A DNA stretch of 53,020 bases, taken from positions 1-53,020 of IMG/VR virus record IMGVR_UViG_3300025101_000033; one strand, 5' to 3'. Both the position numbers and the translations under genes were made by a program. Shown in pieces: positions 8,905 to 28,526 of the stretch; positions within the stretch are counted from its first letter, which is position 1; every line of letters begins with the position of its first letter. The DNA comes from a virus (Duplodnaviria > Caudoviricetes). The notes below the pieces were generated by a model. The model saw only the letters and a program-made list of their open reading frames with translations. It did no database searches and had not been told where the DNA came from.

Positions 8905-11900
8905 TTACCCCAGAAGCTTCCAGTTTCTTGACAGGCCGCCGCGAGTTGAGAATCCCCAAGTCGCGTTGAACTGTGGCCACTCAAGAACATAGAGTTTGTG
9001 TGTATACACAAAGTCTCTTTGAGTATCAATACCCCAACAATTAATGCGCTGTGTTTTCATGTTTGAGTCAATAACAGTTACTTGATAGTATGGCTTTCCC
9101 CCTTTGGTCTTTCGAGTTGTGACGCTTGTGGGGATACACCAACACTTGCCAAGTTCAGGATCATACTCTGAGATTGGCTTGATACCTTGCATGTCAAAGA
9201 ACTTGTATGCTTTCACGGGCACAACCATGTTGATAGGATAGATTCCAGTCAATGCTTGCAAGTGGTTGATACGCTCTCCTTTCGAAAAAGTCCCTTCGTC
9301 TTTGTACTTTTCAATGTTCTCTCCAAGTTTTTTCTTGTTCTTCGGTTTATCTACAACAATGGCTGACCAGAAGTGTTTATCGCCGAAGAACCTCTCATCC
9401 TGTAGAGATTGCATCGCTCCGGCTCGACACATGGCATCTAAGGACTTTTTGTTTACTTTCCGAGCCACGACACCTTTGTCGAACAAAAGGTCCTCTACGG
9501 ACAAAAATGGGCGCTTGAGGAGCACCTCGTCAATAGCTGCTTGCCCTAGTCCCTTGATTGTAGTCAGAGGAGGAACCAAGCATCCATCACGGACTTCCCA
9601 TTGAGTACCAGAAGTGTTGATGTCAAGTGGAGCGACTTTGTATCCGAAAGAGCGAGCGATGTTAATGGCAGCCTCTTTACGAGAGTCTGGTTCATGATCT
9701 AGAAAGGCAGAGATCCATTCGTCTTGATAGTAAGTCTGCAGCCAAGCACATTGATACGAGATGATTGAATACGGGATAGCATGATTCTTTGAGAAACCAT
9801 AGCCAGAGAAATATTCCATCTTACCCCACAATACTTTGGCAGATGCGAACGACATACCTTTCTTCTCGCAACCATTAATAAAACGTTCGTATAGATCTTT
9901 CTTCTTACGCATCTTGGTCTCGGACAAACCTTTCTTTGTCAAGAGCTTACGCAATACGTTAGCATCGGACATTGTGATCTTATCCCCAAGAACATTCACC
10001 AAGTTCATGATGTCTTCTTGAAACACAATAAGTCCGTATGTCTTACCTAGGATGTCCTCAATCAAAGGATGATCATAATCAACATCTTGGATTCCTTCTT
10101 TTGCAGAAACATACATCTTATCTACGTTCGCAGACAAAGGACCCGGTCGATAGATTGCTGATACGGTTGCTATCTCTTCCACCGAAGATACTCTTGCGTT
10201 GCGACCGAGTCGTTGCATGCCAGTATTCATGAACTGAAAGATACCGGCATACTTGCCTTGATGAAATACTTCTTCATAAACAGCAGGGTCTTCAAGATTT
10301 AATACTGATGGGTGTAGATTCTGCATGTACCACTCTTTACATTGTTCGAACGTTGGATTGCGCACACCTTCATTTCTCAAAATTCTCATGATTGCATCCT
10401 CAAATGTCTTGAGAGTTTCAAGGCCAAGGATGTCAAACTTGATGAAACCCAGTGGTTCTAGATGACGAACATTCATACCTTCAGACCATGGAGTTTGCCT
10501 GATGCCTTTCGATGTGATCAGTGGCATTTTGCTTGGGAGATAATCGCCAATGATGGCACCGGCGGCATGACGACCGATTGATCGAGGTTGACCAATCAGT
10601 CCAAAGACTTGCTCTTTAACTTCCGGGAATCTGTGAAAGAAATCTTGAAGAGTCTCAGAAAACTCACAAACTTCAGCAAAAGTCGGCGTGTATACACCAG
10701 CCTTGATGCCATGCTTTTTCTTTGCTCGAGGAGTTGCCTCAAGGAACATTGCTTTTGTTACTTTATTGACTTCGGTGAAATCAATGCCTTCGCGCTTCGA
10801 GATGTCTTTAATGAGAGATGATAACTGTAGAGTGTTGTAGTTCGAAATGAATGCAACAGAGTCTTCACCCCACTCCTCAACCATCTTGTCTTTGATGAGA
10901 GAGTTGTCTCCAAAGTCAATGTCAATGTCAGGAAAGCCATCGGATCCACGAGTCAGGAAGCGTTCAAAAGGTAGCCCCCACTTCATTGGATCGATCTGCG
11001 TAATCTTTAAAAGGAAAGCCAAGAGCGAACCTGCTGCACTACCACGAGCAGGACCAACAAAAGTATAATTCCATGAGAAATCAGTAATTGCTTTGGTCGC
11101 CAAGAAGTATTCACTAAATTTTTGAGACGCGATAACATCGAGTTCCTCCTCTAATCTTTTGCGATAGTGTCGCTTTGTAGTCTTGTCTGTACCTCGGAGA
11201 TAAACCCGTAGAGCTTCTTCTGCAATTTCTTTGAGGTGGTTGTCAGGATTGACACCAGACGGTACGACGAAAGAAGGAAGCTGAACAGAAGTGTCAGGGA
11301 GAAAATCTTCAATTTGCTCAAAAGCGATGTAGGCCGTGTTTGTGATTGACTCAATAACCAAATCATCGTCGTAAGTAAGATTGAGATCATCTGAATATCT
11401 AAGATATGATTCCCACATTTCTTGAGCATTTTTCGGATAAAGTTCATAGCCTATTTCTTCCACTGATTCTGGGATGTTATCGTCCATCCACGCAGGCATC
11501 TTGCCAAGCCAACCAAGTCGCTTGTATACTTCTCTATCTTTCCATGCATCAGGGCGTGGATAGTGAGAGTCACAAGTGGAGATCAGGCGAATACCAAGTT
11601 GCTTCGCTACTTTAATTAGGCAGCGATTTAACAGATGTTGTTCCGGAATATTATTCCATTGTAGTTCAGCATAGAATCTGTCTCCAAAGGTATCATGAAA
11701 CTTAGTAAGGTTAGCGATCATGTCCTCCACGATAGCATCCTCGCCCTCTTCTTGCTTCTTCCACATAGAACCAGCGGCAATACCCCCAAGACACGCTGTT
11801 GCCACAATGACGCCTTCCTGATGCTTCTTGAGAAGCTCCCAATCGATACGTGGTTTGCGATAGAAATAATCACCCGAGTAAGACTTTGAGACCATCTCAT

Positions 11901-12330
11901 AGATGTTCTCGAGACCTTTCTGGTTTTGTGCCAACAGAACGATGTGACGCTTGCGAGATAAGGCTCGCTTATCATTACGTTGCTCATCTTCGACAACCAT
12001 GGCAGAGTCACCACCGTCAACTTCTTTCGCCCGCTTTTTATCTGCAGCGATCTCGTTGCGAAGACTCTGCCACTCTTCCAGTGAATCAATGTAGTATGCT
12101 TCAACACCAAAAATGGGCTTGAAGTCTTTACCTTCAGCCTTCATCTCTTTTGCTCGAAGCAGTTGATAGGACAAACCATTCATAGAGCCATGGTCTGTGA
12201 GTGCAAGTGCACGAGATCCATTCTCATAGGCAAAGTCCATGTGTTCTTGTGGGAATCCAAACCCATCAAATAATGAAAAGCACGAGTGTCCGTGCAAGTT
12301 TACAAATTGTTCTTTTCTTAAGTTAGTCAT
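8905..12330 (-). CDS. dnaE: DNA polymerase III alpha subunit (family C) with PHP domain
   Basis: LHGHS...TDHG...GVEAY (PHP), RGSAAGSL, FERFL, PDIDIDF, KFDILGL, YRPGP, YGFSKNHA; ATG 12330 after GGAGGA. Confidence 0.97.
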   Translation of the reverse strand: MTNLRKEQFVNLHGHSCFSLFDGFGFPQEHMDFAYENGSRALALTDHGSMNGLSYQLLRAKEMKAEGKDFKPIFGVEAYYIDSLEEWQSLRNEIAADKKRAKEVDGGDSAMVVEDEQRNDKRALSRKRHIVLLAQNQKGLENIYEMVSKSYSGDYFYRKPRIDWELLKKHQEGVIVATACLGGIAAGSMWKKQEEGEDAIVEDMIANLTKFHDTFGDRFYAELQWNNIPEQHLLNRCLIKVAKQLGIRLISTCDSHYPRPDAWKDREVYKRLGWLGKMPAWMDDNIPESVEEIGYELYPKNAQEMWESYLRYSDDLNLTYDDDLVIESITNTAYIAFEQIEDFLPDTSVQLPSFVVPSGVNPDNHLKEIAEEALRVYLRGTDKTTKRHYRKRLEEELDVIASQKFSEYFLATKAITDFSWNYTFVGPARGSAAGSLLAFLLKITQIDPMKWGLPFERFLTRGSDGFPDIDIDFGDNSLIKDKMVEEWGEDSVAFISNYNTLQLSSLIKDISKREGIDFTEVNKVTKAMFLEATPRAKKKHGIKAGVYTPTFAEVCEFSETLQDFFHRFPEVKEQVFGLIGQPRSIGRHAAGAIIGDYLPSKMPLITSKGIRQTPWSEGMNVRHLEPLGFIKFDILGLETLKTFEDAIMRILRNEGVRNPTFEQCKEWYMQNLHPSVLNLEDPAVYEEVFHQGKYAGIFQFMNTGMQRLGRNARVSSVEEIATVSAIYRPGPLSANVDKMYVSAKEGIQDVDYDHPLIEDILGKTYGLIVFQEDIMNLVNVLGDKITMSDANVLRKLLTKKGLSETKMRKKKDLYERFINGCEKKGMSFASAKVLWGKMEYFSGYGFSKNHAIPYSIISYQCAWLQTYYQDEWISAFLDHEPDSRKEAAINIARSFGYKVAPLDINTSGTQWEVRDGCLVPPLTTIKGLGQAAIDEVLLKRPFLSVEDLLFDKGVVARKVNKKSLDAMCRAGAMQSLQDERFFGDKHFWSAIVVDKPKNKKKLGENIEKYKDEGTFSKGERINHLQALTGIYPINMVVPVKAYKFFDMQGIKPISEYDPELGKCWCIPTSVTTRKTKGGKPYYQVTVIDSNMKTQRINCWGIDTQRDFVYTHKLYVLEWPQFNATWGFSTRGGLSRNWKLLG

Positions 12331-12391
12331 TTGTCCTCCGTGATTCACTTAGTGTTCAATATTCTATACTAAACTGTTTGTTTGTGTTTAC

Positions 12392-12420
12392 AATATAACA
12401 CAGTCAAGAAGATTTGTCAA
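12392..12420 (-). promoter_or_regulatory. Sigma70-type promoter upstream of dnaE
   Basis: TTGACA-17-TATATT. Confidence 0.8.
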
Positions 12421-12428
12421 GTAGAAAT

Positions 12429-12599
12429 TTAAAGTTTTTCCAAGTCTTCTTCATCAACCCAATATTTTTCGCCTGTTGTAAAGTCATGAACAAGATAGAT
12501 TGAATAATGTATCAAAATGCCCATTGTCCTGACTTCTCTTTCCATGACAAAGCAGACGCTTTCTTCAAGCCATTTGCATTTTACGAGCTCTCCAATCAT
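12429..12599 (-). CDS. Small KOW/SH3-like protein (56 aa, not in the ORF track)
   Basis: Manual translation MIGELVKCKWLEESVCFV...YLVHDFTTGEKYWVDEEDLEKL*; ATGA overlap with the upstream gene. Confidence 0.65.
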   Translation of the reverse strand: MIGELVKCKWLEESVCFVMEREVRTMGILIHYSIYLVHDFTTGEKYWVDEEDLEKL

Positions 12600-12817
12600 T
12601 CTACACCATTAGCAGGTTCGAGATAAAATTCCATCACTCTTTCTGTTCTTTGCCATGGGAACCACATGACTTCTACCATGTCGTCCCTCTTACCATCATA
12701 CGAATGAAACATGTCTCTCTCTATTTTTATTATTATACCAAATTTTTTTAGTGGATTATATCGAGATCTTACAATGCCACTTGGCTTAAACCTCACAAGA
12801 TCTCCAACTTCAAACAT
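12596..12817 (-). CDS. Small KOW/SH3-like protein
   Basis: MFEVGDLV...FGIIIKI...VEVMW...YLE pattern. Confidence 0.65.
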   Translation of the reverse strand: MFEVGDLVRFKPSGIVRSRYNPLKKFGIIIKIERDMFHSYDGKRDDMVEVMWFPWQRTERVMEFYLEPANGVE

Positions 12818-13086
12818 TACTCCTCCAAGAACTTAGTTTTAAATTCTAAACAAAGAAGCTCCCATGTTTGAGGGTTAACAATTAAAGGCTCTACTCCCAA
12901 ATGTTTCATGAATATTGAAGCTCTTGTTCTTGCTTCGCATAGTGAAGGAGCGCGAGGTACATAATAAAATTCTTTTTGTTGATCATAAATGTATACATGT
13001 CTCATGGTGCACACCTCCGGTTCCCAGCCATCATAACAATCACAAGGGTCGCACTCGCAAACTTCGCAGAATTCTGACATGTCCAT
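12817..13086 (-). CDS. Hypothetical protein with Cys-rich N-terminus
   Basis: CEVCECDPCDC; second in-frame start with a strong RBS at 13005. Confidence 0.6.
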   Translation of the reverse strand: MDMSEFCEVCECDPCDCYDGWEPEVCTMRHVYIYDQQKEFYYVPRAPSLCEARTRASIFMKHLGVEPLIVNPQTWELLCLEFKTKFLEE

Positions 13087-15144: not shown

Positions 15145-15966
15145 CTACCATTTCTTGCAAGACCAATATCTTGCCGTCTTCTTATCTTTTGCTGTGTGAC
15201 ACTTGTGTCGTGCTCTGAATGATTTTCTTCGTTTAGGGTTTGACTTTTTGATTTTCATTTTTTTGTCGCCAAAGTTAATCTTCTTTGCTTTGACTCGACC
15301 CTTCTTATCTTTCTTACCTGAGTTAACATATACTTTGAACTTCTTTACGTCACCACGAGTTGGCTTGTTTAGTTGAACGGTTTTGCCTTGATACACGGCT
15401 TCGCCCATAAGATCAGGGCATCCGCAAGATGCTTCTTGTAGTGTCTCAAACAGGCATGCACCGCAGGCATAGCCGCCCTCTTCAAGGGTCGCATCTTCAA
15501 ACATTTCAAGAATTGATTCGTCACCTTCGTACATCAAACCTTCTCTCAAGTCTGGGTATAGATCGTCAACATCGCCGGGATCATCTGGTCCCATGCTAAT
15601 GCCTCGGTCTGCATAACCAGGCTTCATTCCTAGGGCAGACATTCGATCTTGCGTTAGTCGATCTTGTTTTGCTCGTTCTGCTGCATCTTCGGCATCACGT
15701 CTATCTTGGTCGTCGATGTCTCTTTGGGTTCTCTCGGCTTCAAAGCTTGCCAGTTCTTCGGGAGTATAGAACTGAGATTTATCGAGGTTTTTCATGTCCT
15801 CGTATGCCTTCACCAGTTCCTCTTCCGTGGCCTTACCTTGCGATCTGAGCTTCTTAACGCGGAAAAATTCGTCGCGAAGAATCTTCTCTGCTTCCATCTG
15901 TTGCAGAATACCTTCGTCCAAAGTCTCTATAATTATTTTTTTTAATTTTTCTTCTGATAATTTCAT
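15145..15966 (-). CDS. Leader-bearing putative internal head protein with basic C-terminal domain
   Basis: MKLSEEKLKKIIIETLDE; C-terminus KKFKVYV...NFGD...RRKSFRARHKC...ARYWSCKKW. Confidence 0.7.
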   Translation of the reverse strand: MKLSEEKLKKIIIETLDEGILQQMEAEKILRDEFFRVKKLRSQGKATEEELVKAYEDMKNLDKSQFYTPEELASFEAERTQRDIDDQDRRDAEDAAERAKQDRLTQDRMSALGMKPGYADRGISMGPDDPGDVDDLYPDLREGLMYEGDESILEMFEDATLEEGGYACGACLFETLQEASCGCPDLMGEAVYQGKTVQLNKPTRGDVKKFKVYVNSGKKDKKGRVKAKKINFGDKKMKIKKSNPKRRKSFRARHKCHTAKDKKTARYWSCKKW

Positions 15967-16355
15967 TTCTTTTTTCTTCCATCCTTTTGTCGCACATTTT
16001 TAGCCTTACCTTTTCTATTAGGGTTCGGATCCTTCTTTCTCTTTTTGGCAGCTCTTTTATCTCTCTCTTTTTTGCTTAACTTCGCCCTATCATCGGCATC
16101 TCTACAGTATGGCTTGGTCTTTTGACCAGGTTGTTTCGCGCATGGCTTTCCGTCATACTTGCCACCGGTTTGTACCCAGCCGCCACCTTTAAACCAATCT
16201 CTCAAGCTATAACCTTTACTCTTTGCAGATTTACCATCTCGCTTGCCGCCTTTCTTTTTCTTCTTTTTCTTGCGTTTCTTCCTCTTCTTCTCGTCAAGGA
16301 CCGCAGACAGCTCTTCTTTGATGATTTGCTCTAGTTGTTCTCTGGTAATTTCCAT
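15963..16355 (-). CDS. Leader-bearing, very basic putative internal head protein
   Basis: MEITREQLEQIIKEELSAVLDE, then poly-Lys and LRDWF...WV...PC...PYCR. Confidence 0.7.
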   Translation of the reverse strand: MEITREQLEQIIKEELSAVLDEKKRKKRKKKKKKKGGKRDGKSAKSKGYSLRDWFKGGGWVQTGGKYDGKPCAKQPGQKTKPYCRDADDRAKLSKKERDKRAAKKRKKDPNPNRKGKAKNVRQKDGRKKK

Positions 16356-16388: not shown

Positions 16389-17561
16389 TTATTTCTTCTT
16401 TTTGTTCATCGCAGCCGTCTTTCTTTTAGAGGCTTCTTTTCGTTTCTCAGCATACTCGTACGCTTTCTTGAGTCTTGCTTTGGCTTTTGGATCTTTGGCG
16501 TTTTTGTATGCTGCTCTGGATCTCTGATGTATGAGGTTGATAATCTGTGATTGGCGCTTGTGTGACTTGGATTTAAAACTAGCCTTTGAAAGAGTGTCTT
16601 TAACGTCTTGAACTGATGAGAACTTGACGGATACCGTGTCAGTTGGATCTTCGTCGGTGTAAAGTCTACGACCAGAGTCCTTTGGCTTCTTGCCGGTGCC
16701 CTTCTTTGGGTCTCCTTCGACGACTTTCTTTTGCTGTGTTTCCAAGCCCTCTTCTGCTTTCACACAATTACGATAGGTTCGACCAAACATCTTCTTGGTC
16801 TTTCTCTTCTTGTGAGTCTTGTATCCTTTCTGGCATCTTTCTTGTAGAACAACTTCGAGTTCTTCTTTGACAATCTCATCCACCATGGCCGCCTGTTGGT
16901 TTCGAGGCCCCAACCATTCTTCATATTCTTCTAGACAGTTTCCTCTTCGCTGAGGAATTGTGCTTAATCGACCACCGTCGCTATAGCCGGCTATAAATTC
17001 TTCTCCATCTTCGTTGGTGTAAATTCGAAATTGAATAGTGACTGTTAGTAAACCAAACATTTCACCTTCAACCCACTCTTGTCCCGGAACCTGTGCTCCT
17101 TCAGTGTACAAACCTAAGAGTTGTTCATCAGAGAAAACTTTATTTTTAGACCCAATGGTGTGCCTTATGTTCCAAATGTCAGCTGTGATTGGCACATTCA
17201 TTATTATAATCTTGAGTATCTCACTGTCATCTTCGACAAAGATTGAATCACTTCCAAAAACCGGTTGCGACATGAATTCATAGAGCTTAACCGGTTCTTC
17301 TGTCCATGCGTCTGGATCGTCCAGTGAAGGAATAAACTGAGGATTTTGAATGCATTCTGGTGCCGGCATGCCTTCTTCGTTTTGACCCAAAGAATGTAAT
17401 AAATTATAATCAGAACCACATCCAGTAGCCAGTGCTCCGCCTGTGGCTGCCATCATTTGACAAAACTTTCGCCTTGTTATTTCTTTAATGGCACTCTCTA
17501 GTTTGACATTATGGATCTCTTCTAGAATAATTCGACTCAATTCCTCTCGGGTTAGTTCCAT
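16389..17561 (-). CDS. Leader-bearing modular protein with an internal Tat-lipoprotein-like signal and basic C-terminal modules
   Basis: MELTREELSRIILEE...IKE-ITRRKF...ALATGC; later CQKGY...NCV and DPKKGTGKKP..SGRRLYTDE. Confidence 0.7.
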   Translation of the reverse strand: MELTREELSRIILEEIHNVKLESAIKEITRRKFCQMMAATGGALATGCGSDYNLLHSLGQNEEGMPAPECIQNPQFIPSLDDPDAWTEEPVKLYEFMSQPVFGSDSIFVEDDSEILKIIIMNVPITADIWNIRHTIGSKNKVFSDEQLLGLYTEGAQVPGQEWVEGEMFGLLTVTIQFRIYTNEDGEEFIAGYSDGGRLSTIPQRRGNCLEEYEEWLGPRNQQAAMVDEIVKEELEVVLQERCQKGYKTHKKRKTKKMFGRTYRNCVKAEEGLETQQKKVVEGDPKKGTGKKPKDSGRRLYTDEDPTDTVSVKFSSVQDVKDTLSKASFKSKSHKRQSQIINLIHQRSRAAYKNAKDPKAKARLKKAYEYAEKRKEASKRKTAAMNKKKK

Positions 17562-17565
17562 ACCA

Positions 17566-18192
17566 TTATCTTCCGTAAGTTTTGCAAGGGTTCATGCCAC
17601 ATCCGCAGTTTTTGACCTCTTTGACTATCTTAATCGTTTTTTTATCTGATAAGATGTAGTCACCATCCTTATGTTGACCTACGTTTGGCATTCCATCTAG
17701 AGCTTTTACGATCTCGTCTTTCATTTCTTCTCCAAACTCTTTCAAAAATGGATCCATACCGGCAGCGCCACCTTCGTCGCGAAGAATCTTTTCAATCTTC
17801 TTTGGGTCAACATGAACAAAGCCTTTCTTCGCCATGTCTGTATGGTCTTTTTTGACATTGGCAACATGCTTCTTGCCAGTCTTAGGGTCAAACATGTCGT
17901 GCTTAGAAAACTCTTCGTTTAGTGACTCGTTTTTCTTTGACTTGTTGCCCCAGTTGGCAGCACCAACCTTGCGACATTTGACAAGCGCACCGGAAGCATA
18001 AGCGGAAGGCCAGACGTCATAGCGAGACTTTACCTTGTGATAACAAGCGTCTTTCTTCTTAGCTTTTGCCTTCTTTTTCTTCTTGCGTCTCTTCTTTTTG
18101 GCGGCTTTTCGCTTCTTGCCTTTTTTCTCATCAATGACGGCATCAACCTCTTCTTTGATGATTTTGCGTAATTCTTCATTCGAAATTTTCAT
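17566..18192 (-). CDS. Leader-bearing basic putative internal head protein
   Basis: Start MKISNEELRKIIKEEVDAVIDE at 18192 (RBS AGGAG); poly-Lys; DACYHKVKSRYDVWPSAYASGALVKCR. Confidence 0.7.
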   Translation of the reverse strand: MKISNEELRKIIKEEVDAVIDEKKGKKRKAAKKKRRKKKKKAKAKKKDACYHKVKSRYDVWPSAYASGALVKCRKVGAANWGNKSKKNESLNEEFSKHDMFDPKTGKKHVANVKKDHTDMAKKGFVHVDPKKIEKILRDEGGAAGMDPFLKEFGEEMKDEIVKALDGMPNVGQHKDGDYILSDKKTIKIVKEVKNCGCGMNPCKTYGR

Positions 18193-18236: not shown

Positions 18237-18848
18237 TTATAGGTTTAAGCCAAACAGTTGCCTTAAAAATCTTTTTATAACATTATCTTTTTGTTCTTTT
18301 GTTTGGGCTTCATGGAAGGCCCAAGAGTATGAAGATTTTTCTTTTTTAATTTCCTCATCGACCCTTTTGATTTCCAACAACAAGCAGTCGATAGCCTCAC
18401 TATATTCTCCAATGAAAATGTTGTGCTTGTCTACGATGTCAAACAAGTCTCCCCACTTCCCTTCTTCTTTCGCTAAAGTTGCTTTTTTAAACGATTCTGT
18501 GTATTCGTACTTTCTCGGGTCACCGTCCTTAAGTAAGTCGGGGTGCAACTTTCTGGCGACTTGTCTGTAGATTTTTTTGAAATCATGGATCTTGTCTCTC
18601 TTCTCTTCTTCGATTACAGATTTTCTTAATTTGGTAGTTTGATTATCAATGAACATCATGTCAACTTTTCTAGAGTTTTTTTCGTTTAATTTGTGGAGGT
18701 CGACATTATTTTCTGCGCACCATTTCCTGTGGTAAATGTCAAACTCTAAATGAACATCTTTCAAAGTTTCTCTAACGATTTGTAATTCAAACTTTTTGCT
18801 GCGAAAGTTATTTAAGTGTTTTAAGAATTGCAACCTAGACTTCATCAT
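18237..18848 (-). CDS. J-domain (DnaJ-like) protein
   Basis: FKKIYRQVARKLHPD...FKKATLA (HPD motif), in an internal position. Confidence 0.8.
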   Translation of the reverse strand: MMKSRLQFLKHLNNFRSKKFELQIVRETLKDVHLEFDIYHRKWCAENNVDLHKLNEKNSRKVDMMFIDNQTTKLRKSVIEEEKRDKIHDFKKIYRQVARKLHPDLLKDGDPRKYEYTESFKKATLAKEEGKWGDLFDIVDKHNIFIGEYSEAIDCLLLEIKRVDEEIKKEKSSYSWAFHEAQTKEQKDNVIKRFLRQLFGLNL

Positions 18849-19740: not shown

Positions 19741-20444
19741 GGCTTCTCCTTTTTTTGCTCGAGATTCCATGCTTGCTCAAAAGTCATCTTCTGGTTCAGC
19801 TCTGGTAGTACGAATCTCTTTTCAAAATCAAATTTAACTTTTTTATAGTATCTCTTATCTCCACGTTGCCATGAAAACTCACCTTTTATGTCATTTTTCT
19901 TAAACATTCTTTGAGTTTTTATTCTAACAATTCCATTGCCATACGATGGATCTAGTAACTCATCATCGGACATTCTCGAGATAACAGTGAAGTCTTTGAC
20001 TATCTTGGACACATTGCTTCTTCTTGTCTCGTAAAAAAAGATTCTTTTACAAAAGTCCTCTTCTGATTCAATGATCATAGTGTCATGAGGTTTACCAGCC
20101 CTCCAATAAAAATCATCAAAAATCTGATTCATACCTGTCGGTTCGCCATCAAAAATTTCAAGCTTTTCATCGATAACAATTTTTGTATTACCCTTCGTTA
20201 TCAACTCTTTGTTGTCTATTCTAAAAGATGAAACATTGCCACCATGTAACAAAAGAGACGTGAGGCTCATGGCAAAAATTAAGTTTGGAATTAGTTCTCG
20301 AGCACTCTGCACATTAAACTCCGAAAAGTCAATGTTATCAAACTCGTCGGAAAGGTGATGGAAAACAAAATCGTCAAGCAGTATGCATTTTTGTTGTGTT
20401 CTCCATGCATACATTAGCGAAGCGGCAGATTTGCCGATTATCAC
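19689..20444 (-). CDS. Hypothetical protein with degenerate Rossmann-like N-terminus
   Basis: IIGKSAASLMYAW...CILLD beta-alpha-beta pattern without an intact GxGxxG. Confidence 0.55.
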   Translation of the reverse strand: MIIGKSAASLMYAWRTQQKCILLDDFVFHHLSDEFDNIDFSEFNVQSARELIPNLIFAMSLTSLLLHGGNVSSFRIDNKELITKGNTKIVIDEKLEIFDGEPTGMNQIFDDFYWRAGKPHDTMIIESEEDFCKRIFFYETRRSNVSKIVKDFTVISRMSDDELLDPSYGNGIVRIKTQRMFKKNDIKGEFSWQRGDKRYYKKVKFDFEKRFVLPELNQKMTFEQAWNLEQKKEKPWTMWKKLMSKEKTWLD

Positions 20445-21226
20445 TTATTACTCTCTGGTCCAAATCTAGAAAAGAAGTCACTGATGTCTGCAGCAGAAGG
20501 TAGTCTATCGTTTTGGGGGACAAAGTCTTCTGGTGGTTCCGGTAATTCTTCTGGTAATTCGTCAAATTTAATTTTCGGATTTAATGCAATGGAATCTAAA
20601 CCAATTTGACGCGTGTTTGTTATGGCACTTTCTAATTCGTTTGACTTTTCATTTCCCAAAAACCAATCATCCATTTGACCGAAAAAAGCAGCACCAACAC
20701 CCGGATTACCTAAGTATCCAGTGTTGTTCATCGACCCTTGAGAGATAAATCTTTTGAAAAATTCGCCAATATTTTCTTTCATCAAGTGTAATTCTCTGAT
20801 TGCATTTTGTTGCACAGCGCTTAGGTTTTCTAGGTCTTTGTTGCCCCGCAGAGATGAATAGCCGGCAGAGTCAACGATAGATTTTAAGTCTTTTAGGTAT
20901 AACTCTGCTTTTATTTTTACAATTTCATTTTCTAATTTAGGGAGATGTCTGCGCCAATGAATCAAGTACCCTCTGCGTAGTTTATTGTAAATTTCTGATT
21001 GTTCATCTTCTGGTAGTGTAGAGACTGCTTTTGAGATTAGTTCGCCAAATTTTTCTTCGATGATGTCTTTTGTTTCGTTAGCGACAATGTCATCGCCTAC
21101 AAAGTGTTTTATAAAAACATCCACAGAACCTGGTTCAACACCTGTCAAGAGGTCGTAAAGTCCGGCAAATCTTCCTTCGTTTAATGTGAACTTTTTCCAT
21201 TCATTCAGAATCTTCTTCATCGACAT
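20441..21226 (-). CDS. Putative internal head protein (variant leader)
   Basis: MKKILNEWKKFTLNE, with tandem L-N-E sites. Confidence 0.55.
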   Translation of the reverse strand: MSMKKILNEWKKFTLNEGRFAGLYDLLTGVEPGSVDVFIKHFVGDDIVANETKDIIEEKFGELISKAVSTLPEDEQSEIYNKLRRGYLIHWRRHLPKLENEIVKIKAELYLKDLKSIVDSAGYSSLRGNKDLENLSAVQQNAIRELHLMKENIGEFFKRFISQGSMNNTGYLGNPGVGAAFFGQMDDWFLGNEKSNELESAITNTRQIGLDSIALNPKIKFDELPEELPEPPEDFVPQNDRLPSAADISDFFSRFGPESNK

Positions 21227-21452
21227 TTTTTAAACTCCTAAGTCCCTCTTCCGGAACGTTTTCAAATCTTTGACCATTAACGTATACTTCGTAAGCCCAA
21301 AACTCTATAAGAATTTTATCAGATGTAGAAAGATGAACATACATCAGTCTGGCCTTGTCTGAAATAATTCCTACGATGGGCTTTGTTGGAAATATACTAT
21401 AAATAGGCGATTGTGAGTTGACTAACACAAGATCGCCTAAATTAAACTTCAT
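21201..21452 (-). CDS. Small KOW/SH3-like protein
   Basis: Start MKFNLGDLVLV at 21452 (ATGA overlap with thyX); VGII...YEVYV...VPEEGL. Confidence 0.6.
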   Translation of the reverse strand: MKFNLGDLVLVNSQSPIYSIFPTKPIVGIISDKARLMYVHLSTSDKILIEFWAYEVYVNGQRFENVPEEGLRSLKNVDEEDSE

Positions 21453-22150
21453 TCGCGAAGTTCTCGGTATGCTCCCACAGAGAAAGGCCAAATCTCTGCT
21501 GCAATGTCTAGACATGCTCTAGCAACCTGCTGTATTTCCCATTGTGCTCCTTCGTGCAGTCTGAGATCAATAAACTTCAAAAGGTTGGATAGGTTGACTG
21601 TTCCATAGTATTTTGCGTACAAGTTTTGTGGCAAGACTCCTCTAGCCTGCTCTCGACAAACACCAGCCTCTATCAACTTGTCAAATAAATCTAAAGACAT
21701 GTCATGCCACTTTGCTACTGCCTCAGTTGATTTAGAATAGGTATCCAAGAACAAAGGGGTAATAGTTGGATCTTGTTGATCTTCTAAGTTCGACGCTTGT
21801 CTATTGCTCTTGTGTTGGGTTCTGTATGTCGGTGGCTCATAGAATCTCAAGTGGACCTCAGTGTATCGTCTAGAAATTTCATTGTAAGCCCATGTTCTAT
21901 GTCTCATGTGTTGTGAGCGTACAAACATAGGCACCTCGAACAAAAACGTGATCGAATTGTGCTCAAATGGTGACGTATGCTTGTGTTGTATAAGATACTT
22001 AATTAGTTTTTTGTCCCTTGGAGTCAATGGTTTTGTATTGTCTTGGCCAAAAGAAACACGCGCAGCATTAGCAATCATTTTATCATCGCCTACGTGCTGT
22101 ACATAGGAAACTTTACCAATACCATCTCCGTATAACTCTACTTCTTTCAT
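21449..22150 (-). CDS. thyX: Flavin-dependent thymidylate synthase
   Basis: AARVSF, HTSPFEH, RHRTWAYNEISRRY, REQARGVLP, LRLHEGAQWEI. Confidence 0.97.
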   Translation of the reverse strand: MKEVELYGDGIGKVSYVQHVGDDKMIANAARVSFGQDNTKPLTPRDKKLIKYLIQHKHTSPFEHNSITFLFEVPMFVRSQHMRHRTWAYNEISRRYTEVHLRFYEPPTYRTQHKSNRQASNLEDQQDPTITPLFLDTYSKSTEAVAKWHDMSLDLFDKLIEAGVCREQARGVLPQNLYAKYYGTVNLSNLLKFIDLRLHEGAQWEIQQVARACLDIAAEIWPFSVGAYRELRE

Positions 22151-22908
22151 CTATCCGCCTTTCGATGTACAAAAAATTCACCCCTACGAGACCTAGCCTC
22201 AGTTGCATTTTTGGGAGGAACTGGTACCATCATTGATTCCATAATTGCAGAGAATCGTTTTTCTGGTTGTTTTCTCTCCGGACCTTTAGCTAACTGTGTA
22301 TAGAATTCTTGCTCAAGATCACCAAACTTAAAGTTATGGAAAGTCATGTCAACAGAGCCATCTCTCTTGAGATAAAAAGCATCAGTCGATTCTGCATCTG
22401 GTGGTTTAAAAAAGAAACTATCTTGATTGTACTTTGCAGCAAGTTCCATACCTAGATTTTTTAATTCTTCAATTCCTAATCCGGGTCGACCTGGTTGCGC
22501 CATAACTAGAAATCCGGCCTCTGGTTCATTGGTGTCAACTCTAGATTCTTCTCCAGTGTCAGGATTAACTAATTTTTCTTTGTAGCCGCCCATCACTGGT
22601 GTGAAACCAAATCCGGCTGCTCTTATCTCTTGTTTCATTGATTCTCGATTTTGTTCGTTTCTTCCTGCTTGCTCTTCGGCTGCTCCAGGAGGGCAGGGTT
22701 CTCCATAAGCCAATCCAAGCTCCGCTTGGCATGTTCTATCAGGTGTAATTACAATAAAACCTGCTTCCATGTATTTTCCTTGAAGCGCTGTCATGGTCGT
22801 CTCATCTAAACGATGCATCTTGTAAGAAGACTTTGAAGTTTTGAAGATTGTTTTCTCTTCGATAACTTCTAAAATAATTTTTTTTAATTTTTCACTTGTC
22901 AGTTTCAT
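22147..22908 (-). CDS. Leader-bearing SAM lyase (T3 SAMase/DUF3293)-like protein
   Basis: MKLTSEKLKKIILEVIEE leader; FIVITPDR...RNEQNR..M..EIRAAG...GGYKE...EPEAGFLV...LGMELAAKYNQDSFF. Confidence 0.6.
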   Translation of the reverse strand: MKLTSEKLKKIILEVIEEKTIFKTSKSSYKMHRLDETTMTALQGKYMEAGFIVITPDRTCQAELGLAYGEPCPPGAAEEQAGRNEQNRESMKQEIRAAGFGFTPVMGGYKEKLVNPDTGEESRVDTNEPEAGFLVMAQPGRPGLGIEELKNLGMELAAKYNQDSFFFKPPDAESTDAFYLKRDGSVDMTFHNFKFGDLEQEFYTQLAKGPERKQPEKRFSAIMESMMVPVPPKNATEARSRRGEFFVHRKADR

Positions 22909-23182
22909 CGTTGATTCTCCCGTAGACATAGTTTTCTTTAACGACGTAAATAGTCTCGAAATCTCCTTTTATTTCCTGAATTGTGCTTCTTTCGACCACA
23001 ATAGTATCTCCTGGGAGCAAGTCTATCGTGCAATCTTCAGACATGTCTAAGATCTCTCCTATTACATAAGGGGATTTTGGCGGTTGATATTCGTCGGGCA
23101 TAATGAACAAAGGATCTTCTTTGTTTTGCTCTTCTTCTTGTGGCTTTATCCACAAATGTTTATTAAACGGTTTAAATTCCAT
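22892..23182 (-). CDS. groES: Co-chaperonin GroES-like protein
   Basis: Start MEFKPFNKHLWIKP at 23182; FIMPD...GEIL...PGDTIVV...VVKENYVYGRI; 96 aa. Confidence 0.8.
   Translation of the reverse strand: MEFKPFNKHLWIKPQEEEQNKEDPLFIMPDEYQPPKSPYVIGEILDMSEDCTIDLLPGDTIVVERSTIQEIKGDFETIYVVKENYVYGRINDETDK
22947..22954 (-). promoter_or_regulatory. Late-promoter-like motif ACTATTTA inside the 3' end of groES
   Basis: About 39 bp before the leader-protein start at 22908. Confidence 0.55.
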
Positions 23183-23217
23183 GTTGTCTCCATAATAAAA
23201 AAACGTGTTACACATAT

Positions 23218-23246
23218 AGTATAACACGTTTTGTAGTCAATGTCAA
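23218..23246 (-). promoter_or_regulatory. Sigma70-type promoter upstream of groES
   Basis: TTGACA-17-TATACT with extended -10. Confidence 0.8.
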
Positions 23247-23251
23247 GTAAA

Positions 23252-23446
23252 TTAGTTTTGTTCGTGAGATTTTTTAACTTCTTGAACTTGTGTCCGGACA
23301 TCCTTGATTTGCTTTGACGCCTCCATAAGAACCTTTCTCGCTCGAGGTGCAGCAGACTTATAGCCATAAGAACCATTGTCAACCTTGTCAAGATCATCGA
23401 GTGCATTTTGCAAAGCTTCAATTACTTTTTCAATTTCTTCTCTCAT
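23252..23446 (-). CDS. Hc1-like (histone H1-like N-terminal domain) small protein
   Basis: D..KV.NG...KSAAPRARKVLME..K..K.VR matches the Hc1 GNKAAGTRARK pattern. Confidence 0.65.
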   Translation of the reverse strand: MREEIEKVIEALQNALDDLDKVDNGSYGYKSAAPRARKVLMEASKQIKDVRTQVQEVKKSHEQN

Positions 23447-23454
23447 AATTTCTC

Positions 23455-25311
23455 CTAAAATATTTCACAGGCTCCGCCGGCACATGCGACTTCGCCACTT
23501 AAGTCAGTTTCATCTGTAACTTCTGTAATTAGATCTAAATCAACGTTTTTTACCAATTCAAGCATTCTTTCGTAAGTTTCCTTGTCGCAATCTTCAAAAG
23601 GTGCCTGCACATATGTGCCACCGTCATAAGGTAAAACTGATAATCCGTTGTATACACCTCTGTTGTTCCACATCCAATCACCAACAGTATCCCATTCATC
23701 ATCTTTGATTGTAACGGTTGCCGAGACATTGTGGGTATTGTTTCCGTTTTTGTGTCCGGACTTGATCCATTCATTTGAAACCTTTTTTACTCTCTCGAGC
23801 AAATCTAGGGCTGTTTCGTGGCGCGTTATTGCCCCTTCAGGAGCTTTTTGAGGAACAGATAGGATAGCAGTATCATGTGGTCGGAAACGGCAGTCCTCGA
23901 CCAACTCAGGCAGGTTCTGAGCGAGATAGTGATAGATCGCCTCATTCTTTCCTACGCGTAATCTGCGTATATAATAGTCGTTATGCCACGCATGAATACC
24001 ACTTGATGTACCAAGAGTCAGAGATGTAGTTCCTGCTGGTTTAACACATGTTTGTCGTGCTGCTTGGTTAATACCTATTTGCATTGCAACTTGGCGATTC
24101 ATCTTTGATACTTCCAAAGAGGCCTCGGTCATGTCTAACTCAAGAACACCGCCGGAGGCAATACCAGTCATTGAAACACCTATTAAAGCATCCTTTTCCG
24201 TAGTGCGTTGCCATACAGGTCTGAGATAATGGAAATCTGTGTATGATGCTTGAAGTGTGCCAATAAAAGAGGCGGCTCGAGATCGGGCATTTAAATCTTC
24301 TTGATCTTTTACATCCGAGACATTAATCTCAACTAAGTTACAAAATTGAAATGGACGAAGACCAATTTCACAGCAAGGGTTACAGCCCCATTCTTTATCA
24401 TTGGAAAAATAAAATCCGGGTTCACCTGACCGTGATTCCTCGACTCGTTTCCAAATGTTTTTGAATGTTGCTTTATCAATCCTGTGTCTCATAATAACTA
24501 CAGAGTTGTTTGCTCTTCCTCGTTGAGGGTTGAGTTCCCACCACGATCCTGCTTTCGCTCCGAGCATCTCTTCGTCATCAGCCGAGAATAAAGAAATAAG
24601 GGCAGCGCGGCGAATACCTCCAGCGAGAACCGCATCCGCAATGTGGCAGATGATGTCATGCACCTCAATAGGAGTGAGTTTGTCACCATTTTCTTTAGCA
24701 TCTAAAATTCCCTCTACTTTAACTAAACATTCTCTCAGTGGTTGTGGTCCCGGCGCCTTTCCGCCGGATGTAACTAGTCTTGCGCCTTTCGGACGGATGT
24801 CCGAGAAATCAAATCGTAATTTGGAGGTACCTTTGAAATAAGACTGGATCAATGCTTTCACTGCATCTGCCCATCCCTCAATTGAATCTCCAATTAAAAA
24901 TCTTCGAGTTCTTTTCGAAGAAGGTCTGTGAATCTCGGGAAGTTTTTCAACGTGATGATGTTGAACAGAATAGCCAACACCTGTTCCGCCTAATAGCAAA
25001 AACATGATCTCGCCAAATACTCGTGGGTCATCAGCAGGTGCGAACGCACAATTAAAGATACGATTCGGAGACACCTCGATTGGTTTTCCTCCAAACTGCA
25101 TGCTTCGCATCGATGGTAGCACCTTCTTGTCAAACACAAACTTGTAGTTCTCACGAATCTCTTGCTCGAGTTGTGGAAACTTTTTGATGTGCATTTCCAT
25201 GTTACGAGTTACCAATTCGTACCAGTTTTCTCTTCGTTGCTTATCCTCTAAGTAACGAGCGTATTTCATGTGAACGGTTATGTCCGACAAGATTTCCTTT
25301 TCTAGATCCAT
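23455..25311 (-). CDS. nrdJ: Class II (adenosylcobalamin-dependent) ribonucleotide reductase
   Basis: KYAR, PSMR, FNC, GGTGVG, RRAA, NPCCEI, FCNL, TCVKPAGT, ACAGGACE; no beta-subunit gene nearby; likely start MDLEKE at 25311. Confidence 0.93.
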   Translation of the reverse strand: MDLEKEILSDITVHMKYARYLEDKQRRENWYELVTRNMEMHIKKFPQLEQEIRENYKFVFDKKVLPSMRSMQFGGKPIEVSPNRIFNCAFAPADDPRVFGEIMFLLLGGTGVGYSVQHHHVEKLPEIHRPSSKRTRRFLIGDSIEGWADAVKALIQSYFKGTSKLRFDFSDIRPKGARLVTSGGKAPGPQPLRECLVKVEGILDAKENGDKLTPIEVHDIICHIADAVLAGGIRRAALISLFSADDEEMLGAKAGSWWELNPQRGRANNSVVIMRHRIDKATFKNIWKRVEESRSGEPGFYFSNDKEWGCNPCCEIGLRPFQFCNLVEINVSDVKDQEDLNARSRAASFIGTLQASYTDFHYLRPVWQRTTEKDALIGVSMTGIASGGVLELDMTEASLEVSKMNRQVAMQIGINQAARQTCVKPAGTTSLTLGTSSGIHAWHNDYYIRRLRVGKNEAIYHYLAQNLPELVEDCRFRPHDTAILSVPQKAPEGAITRHETALDLLERVKKVSNEWIKSGHKNGNNTHNVSATVTIKDDEWDTVGDWMWNNRGVYNGLSVLPYDGGTYVQAPFEDCDKETYERMLELVKNVDLDLITEVTDETDLSGEVACAGGACEIF

Positions 25312-28073: not shown

Positions 28074-28526
28074 CTATTTTGAAGCGTACATCAACAGCTG
28101 TTGAGATATTTCTTCTTTTTCTACAGATAGCATGAGGTTATCAGCTAGTTTCAAGTTCTCTTGCGTTAACAGATTTTTGGGATGGTCATTATTTTCGGAA
28201 TTCAATTCGATTTCACCAAAAGCAATTCTAAATCTCTTACCAGATGCCTGACGTCGACGTTTCTTCAGTTGTCTTTTGCTAAATGCCGTGGCTTCATATT
28301 TTAAGGTAGTCCCATTGTTAACAATATTATAACCCAAAGTGAATTGCACCTTCCCATCTTCAGTGAACCAACTACGTGAGTTAAAGGTCTTGTGTAATAC
28401 TGGTTTTTTGAAAAACTTTGCATATTTATAAGGTTTAAAACCACGTTGAGATAAGAGTCCATCCAAAGATTCTTCTTCCAATGCTTCCAAGATCATTTGT
28501 TTTAGTTTTGCTTCTGTTAGTTTCAC
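28074..28526 (-). CDS. Leader-bearing putative internal head protein
   Basis: GTG start at 28526 (RBS GGAGA): MKLTEAKLKQMILEALEEE; ACTATTTA at 28548-28555. Confidence 0.65.
   Translation of the reverse strand: MKLTEAKLKQMILEALEEESLDGLLSQRGFKPYKYAKFFKKPVLHKTFNSRSWFTEDGKVQFTLGYNIVNNGTTLKYEATAFSKRQLKKRRRQASGKRFRIAFGEIELNSENNDHPKNLLTQENLKLADNLMLSVEKEEISQQLLMYASK

Follow-up and report, generated by a model that had tools for sequence, protein, structure and literature searches.

A T3-type SAM-lyase-like phage protein behind a shared N-terminal leader: a candidate for packaging in the virion

Background

SAM lyases of the T3 type are textbook early-gene counter-defences. Why, then, should a gene of this kind stand behind a promoter-like motif that also precedes sheath and tape-measure genes, and why should its product open with a leader that other proteins of the same phage share? 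The locus that raises these questions lies in a virus record from IMG/VR (IMGVR_UViG_3300025101_000033; Caudoviricetes, a marine myophage), of which 53,020 nucleotides were analysed; this whole stretch is referred to below as the window. A first-pass annotation had read the gene as a late-expressed SAM-lyase-like domain fused to a packaging leader, a virion-delivered enzyme that could begin to deplete SAM at injection. The open reading frame is made of three modules: an amphipathic leader, an L-D-E site and a T3-SAM-lyase-like domain. The whole explanation, a leader-packaged, protease-trimmed and DNA-ejected T3-type SAM lyase in the service of counter-defence, stands in our judgment at about an even chance.

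The open reading frame

The features of the locus are collected in Table 1; residue numbers count from the first ATG. The real start is probably M8, at 22908, giving a protein of 253 aa, because a GGGAGA sequence is placed 7 nt upstream and most homologues start with MKLT. Every string quoted in the first-pass annotation is found in the translation: FIVITPDR at residues 58-65, the asparagines N91/N94, IRAAG at 102-106, EPE at 135-137, FLV at 140-142 and LA.KYNQDS at 163-171. No PHROGs family matches the protein, Rfam has no match over 21000-24000, and 50,697 phage records yielded no match either to the protein (tblastn; S-CREM2, which is taken up below, is nevertheless among these records) or to 15 kb of the window (megablast).

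Table 1. The SAM-lyase-like gene, its parts and the other leader-bearing ORFs, in window coordinates
Feature	Position	Strand	Remarks
SAM-lyase-like ORF	22147..22929	-	260 aa counted from first ATG
ACTATTTA, promoter-like, putative late -10 element	22947..22954	-	38 nt upstream of probable start
GGGAGA, ribosome-binding site	22916..22921	-	7 nt 5' of ATG 22908
Type A leader MKLTSEKLKKIILEVIEE, residues 8-25	22855..22908	-	predicted amphipathic helix, putative capsid-targeting propeptide
Variable linker, residues 26-40	22810..22854	-	indels in alignment A1; pLDDT <50 at residues 29-35
L41-D42-E43 ([LI]-x-E), candidate site for prohead-protease cleavage after Glu	22801..22809	-	directly N-terminal of core
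SAM-lyase-like core, T3 gp0.3 type, residues 44-229	22243..22800	-	VIA-align and hhalign
G114-G115-Y116-K117-E118	22576..22590	-	aligned to T3 G55-C56-Y57-R58-E59, Svi3-3 G56/Y58
E137	22519..22521	-	aligned to T3 E68, Svi3-3 E69 (essential Glu)
Q169-D170	22420..22425	-	aligned to T3 Q94-D95, Svi3-3 Q104-E105
Family-specific C-terminal tail, residues 230-260, and stop codon	22147..22242	-	past T3-aligned stretch
Four consecutive leader-A ORFs	15145-15966, 15963-16355, 16389-17561, 17566-18192	-	leader scan
ORF with leader type B, MSMKKILNEWKKF...	20441..21226	-	
Sixth leader-A ORF, GTG start	28074..28526	-	ACTATTTA 22 nt upstream

Relationship to the SAM lyases

The relationship to SAM lyases proposed in the first-pass annotation has held up; it is backed by the fold, by profile-profile alignment and by conserved active-site positions, although the direct Pfam match falls under its cut-off. 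The AlphaFold model (pLDDT 84.3; above 90 in the core) has the ferredoxin-like or PII-like alpha-beta sandwich of the SAM lyase family. Comparison with T3 SAMase and Svi3-3, which had been suggested as a check, bears this out. With VIA-align the T3 chain 7ock_L topped 48,161 chains in a first run (Z 8.3, rmsd 3.8, 139 residues aligned; next match 6.1), and a second run returned it at Z 8.5 (rmsd 3.7, 135 aligned, model residues 47-226; next 5.0). Foldseek gave no PDB match at E<=0.001 in either of its two runs, its best being Svi3-3 (6zm9, prob 0.98) both times. SAM lyases are homotrimers with their active sites at the subunit interfaces; a complex prediction for three copies of residues 44-260 with three SAM molecules scored 0.00, which speaks neither for nor against a trimer.

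At the level of sequence, an alignment of 58 relatives (23-51% identity) compared by hhalign with one of 17 T3-type lyases gives Prob 90.6 and E 1.3e-6 over 89 columns, pairing R65, N91, GGYKE, E137 and QD with T3 R19, N27, GCYRE, E68 and QD. (A technical note: this match appeared only once the T3-type alignment was built; alignment A1 set against the single T3 sequence produced a spurious 24-column alignment at Prob 0.2.) The T3 pattern given in the first-pass annotation proves correct, since gene 0.3 reads VLVSAFR, N27, LRAA, GCYRE, E67-E68 and EQD, and its translation is identical to 7ock_L. A search of the window with the Pfam profile PF23780 found nothing; tested directly, the protein reaches 17.3 bits (E 0.0047, residues 85-191) against a gathering cut-off of 28 bits. 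The same profile is matched by 22 of 25 close relatives (E<=0.1) and by 33 of the 58 wider ones (E<=0.01; best 1.5e-11), and the protein is accordingly filed as belonging to a divergent sister family rather than as a member in the Pfam-defined sense. DUF3293 (PF11697), the other family proposed for comparison, is matched by 10 of the 25 close and 8 of the 58 wider relatives, but the protein's own score (17.8 bits, E 0.0054) lies under the 25-bit gathering cut-off. Against PDB sequences, the A1 profile HMM had no matches at E<=10, and that of the 58 relatives found no SAM lyase and only dehaloperoxidases (E>=0.021), which were treated as chance. The family itself is large, with at least 724 representative clusters (50% identity) at E<=1e-3.

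The ligand-binding and catalytic residues of SAM lyases, among them the roles of Svi3-3 G56 and Y58, and the E69Q/E68Q mutant data are described in PMC7877911. Judging by the alignments, the protein has equivalents of Svi3-3 G56, Y58, E69, Q104 and E105 and of T3 E68. Among the 58 relatives, G114 is conserved in 57, Y or F at 116 in 55, E at 137 in 57, Q at 169 in 57, and D or E at 170 in 56.

How close is the protein, then, to its two reference points? T3 gp0.3 (SAMase; PDB 7ock, 8bb1) has the same fold, with 135 of its 152 residues aligned at Z 8.5, and the two proteins align at R, N, G-x-Y-[KR]-E, the catalytic E and Q-D, at an identity of about 11-12%. Gp0.3 has no leader; to the common core the window protein adds a leader, an L-x-E site and a tail of about 30 aa. 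Svi3-3 is the weaker structural match (Z 4.2-5.5), and lacks both the T3-like C-terminal part and a leader.

A leader held in common

Sharing of the leader was judged by a BLOSUM62 scan of all six frames of the window with residues 9-25 as the query and 100 codon shuffles as the null; a regular expression derived from the leaders themselves was set aside as circular. Five other minus-strand ORFs match, with scores of 58, 54, 40, 39 and 29. The codon-shuffle maximum is 39, so that only the first three rise above the null on score alone. The matches fall exactly on start codons (15966, 28526, 17561, 18192 and 16355, all on the minus strand), and the resemblance of the leaders is beyond chance. 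Within the run of four consecutive leader-A ORFs, two become polybasic immediately past [LI]-D-E.

A second leader, type B (consensus MKxLxExWxxYL, as against MKLTxExLKxIIxE for type A), opens another ORF of the window, and distant homologues of the lyase bear it in place of type A. The two types are swapped among homologues, and in the genomes concerned each recurs at the head of further ORFs. What characterizes the internal head proteins of T4, a short N-terminal leader common to unrelated proteins of one phage, is found here as well. AlphaFold predicts a helix over residues 12-31 (mean pLDDT 90 for residues 11-20), and two further [LI]-x-E sequences, I-L-E (19-21) and I-E-E (23-25), fall inside the type A leader.

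The junction and the protease

Between the variable linker and the core stands L-D-E. The N-termini of the 58 relatives vary greatly, from 12 to 65 residues, yet 57 of the relatives have L, I, V or M at position 41, and 57 have E at position 43. AlphaFold makes residues 38-41 a strand adjoining the core, and L-D-E may accordingly belong to the fold instead of marking a point of cleavage.

A candidate protease for such a site is encoded in related genomes: Peptidase_S77, the T4 gp21-type protease, scores above cut-off in all three of the larger related contigs, and in one of them (G001) its gene lies within a run of large ORFs that looks like a head module (candidate portal, scaffold and capsid). 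It was not found in the window, a 29%-complete fragment. A ClpP-type ORF of the window (3678-4340) was considered for the part of prohead protease and is less likely to play it, because relatives encode a ClpP homologue together with the S77 protease, the latter, in G001, in the putative head module.

A late-type motif

The promoter-like octamer upstream of the lyase-like gene, a putative late -10 element, is over-represented and one-sided: eight copies occur in the window where 1.92 would be expected, without exception on the minus strand, and none of 100 shuffles reached that number. Other copies precede, at a distance of 15-50 nt, the sheath gene (50174), the tape-measure gene (44648) and three more of the leader ORFs (starts at 16355, 18192 and 28526). 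The motif is retained in front of the homologue in 11 of 12 related loci, as a TATTTA at a distance of 16-45 nt. The copy at the lyase-like gene falls within the 3'-terminal part of the GroES-like ORF, and coding constraint could therefore explain part of its conservation.

A homologue in virions

The nearest precedent is gp6 of the Synechococcus phage S-CREM2, annotated as "SAM hydrolase (virion protein)", whose core is homologous to that of the window protein: gp6 scores 70.1 bits on PF23780, above the cut-off, and hhalign of gp6 with the 58 relatives (Prob 97.6, E 3.1e-12) also aligns the L-x-E junction. Nineteen gp6 peptides were detected by mass spectrometry of the virion proteome (PMC10665884, Table 3; Front Microbiol 2023), and its authors proposed a virion-borne SAM hydrolase that enters with the DNA and acts against restriction. 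The paper is silent on a leader or cleavage (PMC10665884). Gp6 likewise has an N-terminal leader in common with other, virion, proteins of its phage; the S-CREM2 ORFs that open with this leader number four, and all four are on the published virion list. The two proteins also differ: gp6 is 414 aa long, a long Lys-rich C-terminal region replaces the conserved tail, and its leader is a T4-style 10-mer, neither type A nor type B. Packaging of a SAM lyase or of DUF3293 was also looked for in the literature; only the S-CREM2 paper came up, and no paper in the library searched mentions DUF3293.

The core of the idea is consequently already in print and less new than the first-pass annotation assumed; the leader and cleavage architecture and the size of the family appear new. 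That annotation's description of the gene as packaging-tagged and late-expressed has indirect but converging support: for it speak the leader common to other ORFs, the octamer at sheath and tape-measure genes, S77 proteases in three of three contigs, the [LIVM]-x-E junction in 57 of 58 relatives and the virion-borne S-CREM2 homologue; against it, the S77 search of the window, a 29%-complete fragment, came up empty.

From prohead to new host?

The sequence of events that we propose would run as follows: 1) A late-type promoter would drive the lyase gene alongside the structural genes. 2) The leader, acting like a T4 capsid-targeting sequence, would bring the precursor (~253 aa) into the prohead core. 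3) During head maturation a T4 gp21-type protease would trim the leader at one or more [LI]-x-E sequences, L41-D42-E43 being the candidate site of the family as a whole and I-L-E and I-E-E possible further sites within the leader. 4) The mature enzyme, of ~24 kDa, would be ejected together with the DNA. 5) In the new host it would convert SAM to methylthioadenosine and homoserine lactone, and the loss of SAM would starve type I restriction-modification and BREX ahead of any phage gene expression.

Another reading starts from the gene's surroundings. The gene is flanked by RNR/GroES-like and ThyX genes, a nucleotide-metabolism setting rather than a head module, and the phage also encodes GroEL/GroES-like, DnaJ-like and ClpP proteins. 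Together with the strand of the fold that L-D-E adjoins, this would suit an unpackaged, cytoplasmic late enzyme whose leader is a helix for oligomerisation, chaperone recognition or localisation; late depletion of SAM might then keep progeny DNA free of methylation, or serve to salvage MTA and methionine. We consider this unlikely: the same leader is also carried by polybasic proteins similar in kind to internal head proteins, the leader types are exchanged among homologues, relatives encode S77 proteases, and the S-CREM2 homologue and all four ORFs with its leader are virion-associated.

Which substrate?

If the enzyme is packaged (or even if it is not), is SAM what it cleaves? The loop between Y116 and E137 (the T-loop) has 20 residues, 10 more than in T3, and among family members its length varies between 8 and 55; the substrate may accordingly differ. 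The C-terminal tail, Arg-rich and conserved, has no T3 counterpart (R225, R248), and of its motif R248-x-G250-E251, 56 of 58 relatives have the arginine and 57 the glutamate E251. SAM-AMP lyases (C. botulinum, PDB 9gab; the phage candidate AcrIIIB4) belong to the same PII-like superfamily; what they share structurally with the SAM lyases comes down to the catalytic Glu and a single Gln, both of which the window protein has. Whether there is room for the AMP moiety depends on the T-loop; a phage member of this family cleaved SAM-AMP and not SAM, and the phage SAM-AMP lyase, like the window protein, has an additional N-terminal domain (PMC12255297). The family member described here might thus act on SAM-AMP, as an anti-type-III-CRISPR enzyme like candidate AcrIIIB4, or on another sulfonium nucleoside. 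The model, however, is far nearer to the T3 SAM lyase (Z 8.5) than to 9gab_D (Z 4.3 only), and its G-x-Y and Q-D motifs agree with those of SAM lyases; a substrate other than SAM strikes us as distinctly improbable.

A further reading is that of an internal head protein without catalysis, which reuses the PII-like SAM-lyase fold as a structural or scaffolding element or as a block on the host SAM synthetase. In its favour, T3 SAMase is reported to inactivate MetK via heteropolymers (PMC8406200), and the chain that matches best in structure is the T3 lyase of the MetK complex. The reading is nevertheless very improbable, since 55-57 of the 58 relatives, at 23-51% identity, conserve the ligand-binding and catalytic positions, the pattern expected of an active enzyme.

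An address code for head loading?

T3 gp0.3 is the first gene product made after infection, according to PMC8406200. A ready-made SAM lyase in the virion would not have to wait even for the first transcript; T4 IPI* and Alt follow the same logic, which here would be turned on a metabolite required by type I restriction-modification and BREX. To the S-CREM2 report, the single prior instance of a virion-borne homologue, which came without mechanistic analysis, the present work adds the precursor architecture (leader, conserved [LIV]-x-E, lyase), evidence for the modularity of the leaders and their sharing with other cargo, and a large uncultured family.

One can go further and think of the leaders, in distant T4-like marine myophages, as a modular address code for head loading, in which at least two interchangeable leaders (A and B), neither of them the T4 10-mer, are joined to [LIV]-x-E. 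Besides the SAM-lyase family with its at least 724 clusters, the cargo may include polybasic proteins and one protein that has a Tat/lipobox-like segment. This generalization is tentative, and we would sooner bet against it than for it. Were it true, counter-defence by depleting a metabolite as soon as infection begins, from its first second, would be widespread in the ocean, and T3 would be no special case. Given confirmation, the leaders could help to recognise which proteins encoded in uncultured phage genomes are ejected.

The T4 internal proteins (IPI*, IPII, IPIII, Alt) remain the standard of comparison. They are made with a short propeptide that gp21 removes by cutting after Glu, and as cargo they are ejected against host defences (PMC3012670; PMC9026906); in their capsid-targeting sequences, positions 4 and 7 govern targeting and positions 8 and 10 processing (PMC9026906). 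Here, too, diverse putative cargo has only a short N-terminal leader in common. In contrast to T4, the leaders are of ~18 residues and of different sequence, and the predicted cargo is a metabolite-destroying enzyme instead of a nuclease inhibitor or an ADP-ribosyltransferase. The predicted mature part of the window protein is also acidic (pI 5.2), whereas the T4 internal proteins are basic.

Relationship to SAM lyases

Direct sequence evidence for a SAM-lyase identity of the lyase ORF is weak. Its protein scores 17.3 bits against PF23780 (S-AdoMet_lyase), under the 28-bit cut-off, and 17.8 against DUF3293 (cut-off 25); it matched no PHROGs family, tblastn against 50,697 phage records gave no match, and profile HMMs of its family found no meaningful match among PDB sequences. 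The indirect evidence is consistent. A word-indexed search retrieved 43 homologues, every one of them unnamed; an alignment of the query with 24 of these (A1) contains 22 sequences out of 25 that match PF23780 at E<=0.1. An exhaustive profile search at E<=1e-3 found 724 representative clusters, of which 220 reach E<=1e-10 and 42 reach E<=1e-30. A wider alignment (A2, n=58) was assembled from the query and 57 near-full-length proteins chosen by eye among 150 matches listed, fragments and long fused forms being omitted; 33 of its 58 sequences match PF23780 at E<=0.01 (best 1.5e-11). Compared by hhalign with T3-type lyases (A3: T3 gp0.3 and 16 of its 45 homologues), A2 gives Prob 90.6, E 1.3e-6.

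Structures were predicted from A1 (pLDDT 73.5) and A2 (pLDDT 84.3; core >90). The Foldseek comparison with T3 SAMase and Svi3-3 that the first-pass annotation proposed has Svi3-3 (6zm9) as the best PDB match in both runs (E 3.8e-3 and 7.0e-3, prob 0.98); neither run has a match at E<=0.001. T3 lyase chains appear at prob 0.84-0.99; potassium channels are interleaved in the second run, at prob <=0.15. A Foldseek-independent search of 48,161 chains ranks the T3 lyase 7ock_L first for both models: Z 8.3, rmsd 3.8, 139 aligned (next chain 6.1), and Z 8.5, rmsd 3.7, 135/152 aligned (next chain 5.0; SAM-AMP lyase 9gab_D 4.3, Svi3-3 4.2). Predicted viral structures (BFVD) gave 12 matches at E<=0.001, led by uncharacterised myovirus proteins of ~240 aa and including annotated SAM hydrolases (e.g., phage POP72, E 3.5e-5). 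The SAM-lyase relationship suggested at first pass is supported by the profile comparison, by the fold and by the conserved active-site positions; the residue strings quoted for it are all found in the translation, and the T3 pattern given with them agrees with translated T3 gene 0.3, itself identical to chain 7ock_L.

The hhalign pairing (residues counted from the first ATG) equates R65 with T3 R19, N91 with N27, G114-G115-Y116-K117-E118 with G55-C56-Y57-R58-E59, E137 with E68, and Q169-D170 with Q94-D95. In Svi3-3, G56, E69 and Q104 are reported as the sole strictly conserved residues among active enzymes, Y58 and E105 contribute to enclosing the ligand, and E69Q (equivalent to E68Q in T3) abolishes activity (Guo et al., PMC7877911). 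Among the A2 relatives, G114, E137 and Q169 are each kept in 57/58, D/E170 in 56/58 and Y/F116 in 55/58. The T-loop has 20 residues in place of the 10 of T3 SAM lyase, and there is a conserved ~30-aa tail with R248-x-G-E251 that the T3 enzyme lacks.

We conclude that the protein is homologous to the T3-type SAM lyases and, though divergent, retains the catalytic constellation; of its fold and homology to SAM lyases we are highly confident. It probably has lyase activity on some substrate of the SAM type. Only the Glu and the Gln are described as common to SAM and SAM-AMP lyases (Chi et al., PMC12255297), and the substrate can therefore not be called from sequence; SAM itself would be a marginally favored choice.

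The SAM-lyase-like ORF and its setting

Which ATG is used? GGGAGA lies 7 nt 5' of the second ATG (22908) and most homologues begin with MKLT; translation therefore likely starts there, yielding 253 aa. The same-strand neighbors are a putative class II-like ribonucleotide reductase ORF, the GroES-like ORF and ThyX. Tail-sheath and tape-measure genes are present in the window; the sheath is distant from those of T4-like phages and cyanophages (<=30% identity over large parts by tblastn). This phage also has a chaperone/protease set of a putative GroEL-like, a GroES-like, a weakly DnaJ-like and a ClpP ORF.

Features of the window discussed in the text
Feature	Position	Strand	Remarks
Lyase ORF	22147-22929	-	260 aa from first ATG
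Leader-A ORF	15963-16355	-	long Lys/Arg tract after V-[LI]-D-E; pI 10.5
Leader-A ORF	17566-18192	-	long Lys/Arg tract after V-[LI]-D-E; pI 9.8
ACTATTTA copy before lyase ORF	22947-22954	-	within last codons of GroES-like ORF
Putative GroEL-like ORF	1-1188, window edge	-	reading of N-terminus
GroES-like ORF	22892-23227	-	phrog_3188 E 1.5e-7; Cpn10 E 0.0083
DnaJ-like ORF	18237-18848	-	weak match, E 0.0012, below cut-off
ClpP ORF	3678-4340	-	PF00574, 135 bits

The window has 8 copies of the promoter-like motif ACTATTTA, all on the coding strand (1.92 expected; 8 reached in 0/100 shuffles). They lie 15-50 nt upstream of the sheath, tape-measure and lyase genes, of three further leader ORFs and of a small ORF, with one more copy intergenic. 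In twelve related loci the coding strand has 24 copies and the other strand none, and TATTTA lies 16-45 nt upstream of the lyase homologue in 11 of the 12. At several loci the motif falls inside the upstream GroES-like ORF; across L002-L014 the residues encoded there vary (TIY, TYY, HY, NY) while CTATTTA is retained, which argues for, and does not prove, a constraint at the level of DNA. In G001, a larger related record (94% complete), the coding strand carries 12 of the 13 copies, which precede, among others, both ORFs with the second type of leader (leader B, see below) and an ORF similar to the window sheath at its N-terminus.

Leaders, and proposed processing and packaging

The leader and the L-D-E site of the first-pass annotation are both present, and the leader recurs. 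Leader A of the lyase ORF (residues 8-25, MKLTSEKLKKIILEVIEE) is a helix in the predicted model. Scanning the window in six frames with residues 9-25 gives five matches (scores 58, 54, 40, 39, 29), all exactly on start codons of other minus-strand ORFs (15966, 28526 (GTG), 17561, 18192, 16355); three of these scores are higher than the maximum from 100 codon-shuffled windows (39), and the remaining two matches draw their support from falling on a start codon. The six leader-A proteins are otherwise unrelated. In two of them the acidic leader gives way, directly after V-[LI]-D-E, to a polylysine/arginine tract; both match phrog_727, a function-unknown family, and look like DNA-binding internal head proteins. 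A third (16389-17561, minus strand; no Pfam or PHROG match) continues with a twin-arginine-signal-like segment with a lipobox (TRRKF...LATGC), an odd pairing for a would-be packaged protein.

More distant lyase homologues (L010-L013, L016) begin with leader B, as does window ORF 20441-21226 on the minus strand (MSMKKILNEWKKF...LNE). G001 has leader B on its lyase homologue and on a 752-aa ORF, and leader A on three small ORFs. An address tag would be expected to behave in this way, with one cargo under differing leaders and one leader on differing cargo. In G001, the ORF that immediately follows the S77 protease gene (85714-86169, minus strand) has a leader-A-like N-terminal stretch (LKKLLKPLIKECIKEVIFEDG); leader A may have originated in a head-core protein or imitate one.

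In the 58 A2 relatives the N-terminal region is between 12 and 65 residues long and cannot be aligned, and the three residues preceding the core are [LIVM]-x-E in 57/58. In the lyase protein this triplet is L41-D42-E43; I-L-E and I-E-E occur inside the leader. T4 gp21 protease is reported to cleave after Glu, and in the 10-residue T4 capsid-targeting sequence positions 4 and 7 govern targeting, 8 and 10 processing (PMC9026906; PMC3012670). L-D-E could instead be structural rather than a cleavage site, because residues 38-41 are predicted (A2-based model) as a strand beside the core.

If L-D-E is a cleavage site, what would cut it? No Peptidase_S77 gene was found in the window, a 53-kb myophage fragment (CheckV completeness 29%); one scores above the Pfam cut-off in all three larger related records searched, and that of G001 lies, in our reading, within a run of large ORFs for putative portal, scaffold and capsid. 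The ClpP-type ORF was considered as head protease and rejected: the same three records have its homologue as well as an S77 gene, and it is therefore taken as ClpP.

A precedent exists in the T4-like cyanophage S-CREM2, whose virion proteome includes a 414-aa "SAM hydrolase", gp6 (19 unique peptides, 26.3% coverage; Table 3), proposed to guard against restriction on entering with the DNA (Liu et al., PMC10665884). Gp6 matches PF23780 (70.1 bits) and the window lyase family alignment (Prob 97.6, E 3.1e-12, L-x-E junction included); its first ten residues, with aromatics at 4 and 7, Leu 8 and Glu 10, follow the T4 rule. When the whole genome is scanned with gp6 residues 2-10, four ORFs start with this leader (gp6, gp13, gp14, ORF154). 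Table 3 lists 52 virion proteins, against 221 features annotated in the record, and includes all four; the computed chance that the three besides gp6 would all be listed is about 0.013. Their scan scores alone (28-30) are not above the shuffled maximum of 32, and the argument rests on coincidence with start codons and the virion list. Besides gp6, the T4-style leader heads gp13, gp14 (a kinase) and ORF154 (a cytidylyltransferase), at 10310-12846 of locus L035 and record position 124608-125468. None of the terms leader, cleavage and capsid targeting is used in PMC10665884, which does not comment on the leader that the four share.

Packaging of the lyase ORF protein through its leader appears reasonably likely to us. 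In the mechanism that we consider most likely, the precursor would be produced late in infection, be taken into the prohead by its leader and be trimmed by an S77 protease; the mature enzyme (~24 kDa, pI 5.2, computed) would be ejected and then cleave SAM. For this chain as a whole, correlation between its steps allowed for, we consider the case evenly balanced. An E. coli cell contains roughly 1e5 molecules of SAM. As a rough plausibility check, about a hundred active sites might destroy a number of molecules of that order within about two minutes, given the Svi3-3 turnover of 9.5 per second (PMC7877911) and the 20-200 copies of capsid-targeted fusion proteins packaged per T4 particle (PMC9026906).

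SAM lyases, capsid-targeting sequences and one virion-borne SAM hydrolase were already known. Three features appear to be new in the literature searched: 1) the precursor architecture of leader, conserved [LIV]-x-E and lyase across a large uncultured family; 2) two leader types unlike that of T4; 3) the exchange of leaders A and B between lyase homologues.

SAM-lyase-like domains were also matched in BFVD inside very large phage proteins (769-1477 aa), among them a protein with a structural annotation and another annotated ART-PolyVal-like; the domain may also travel in virions as part of such proteins.
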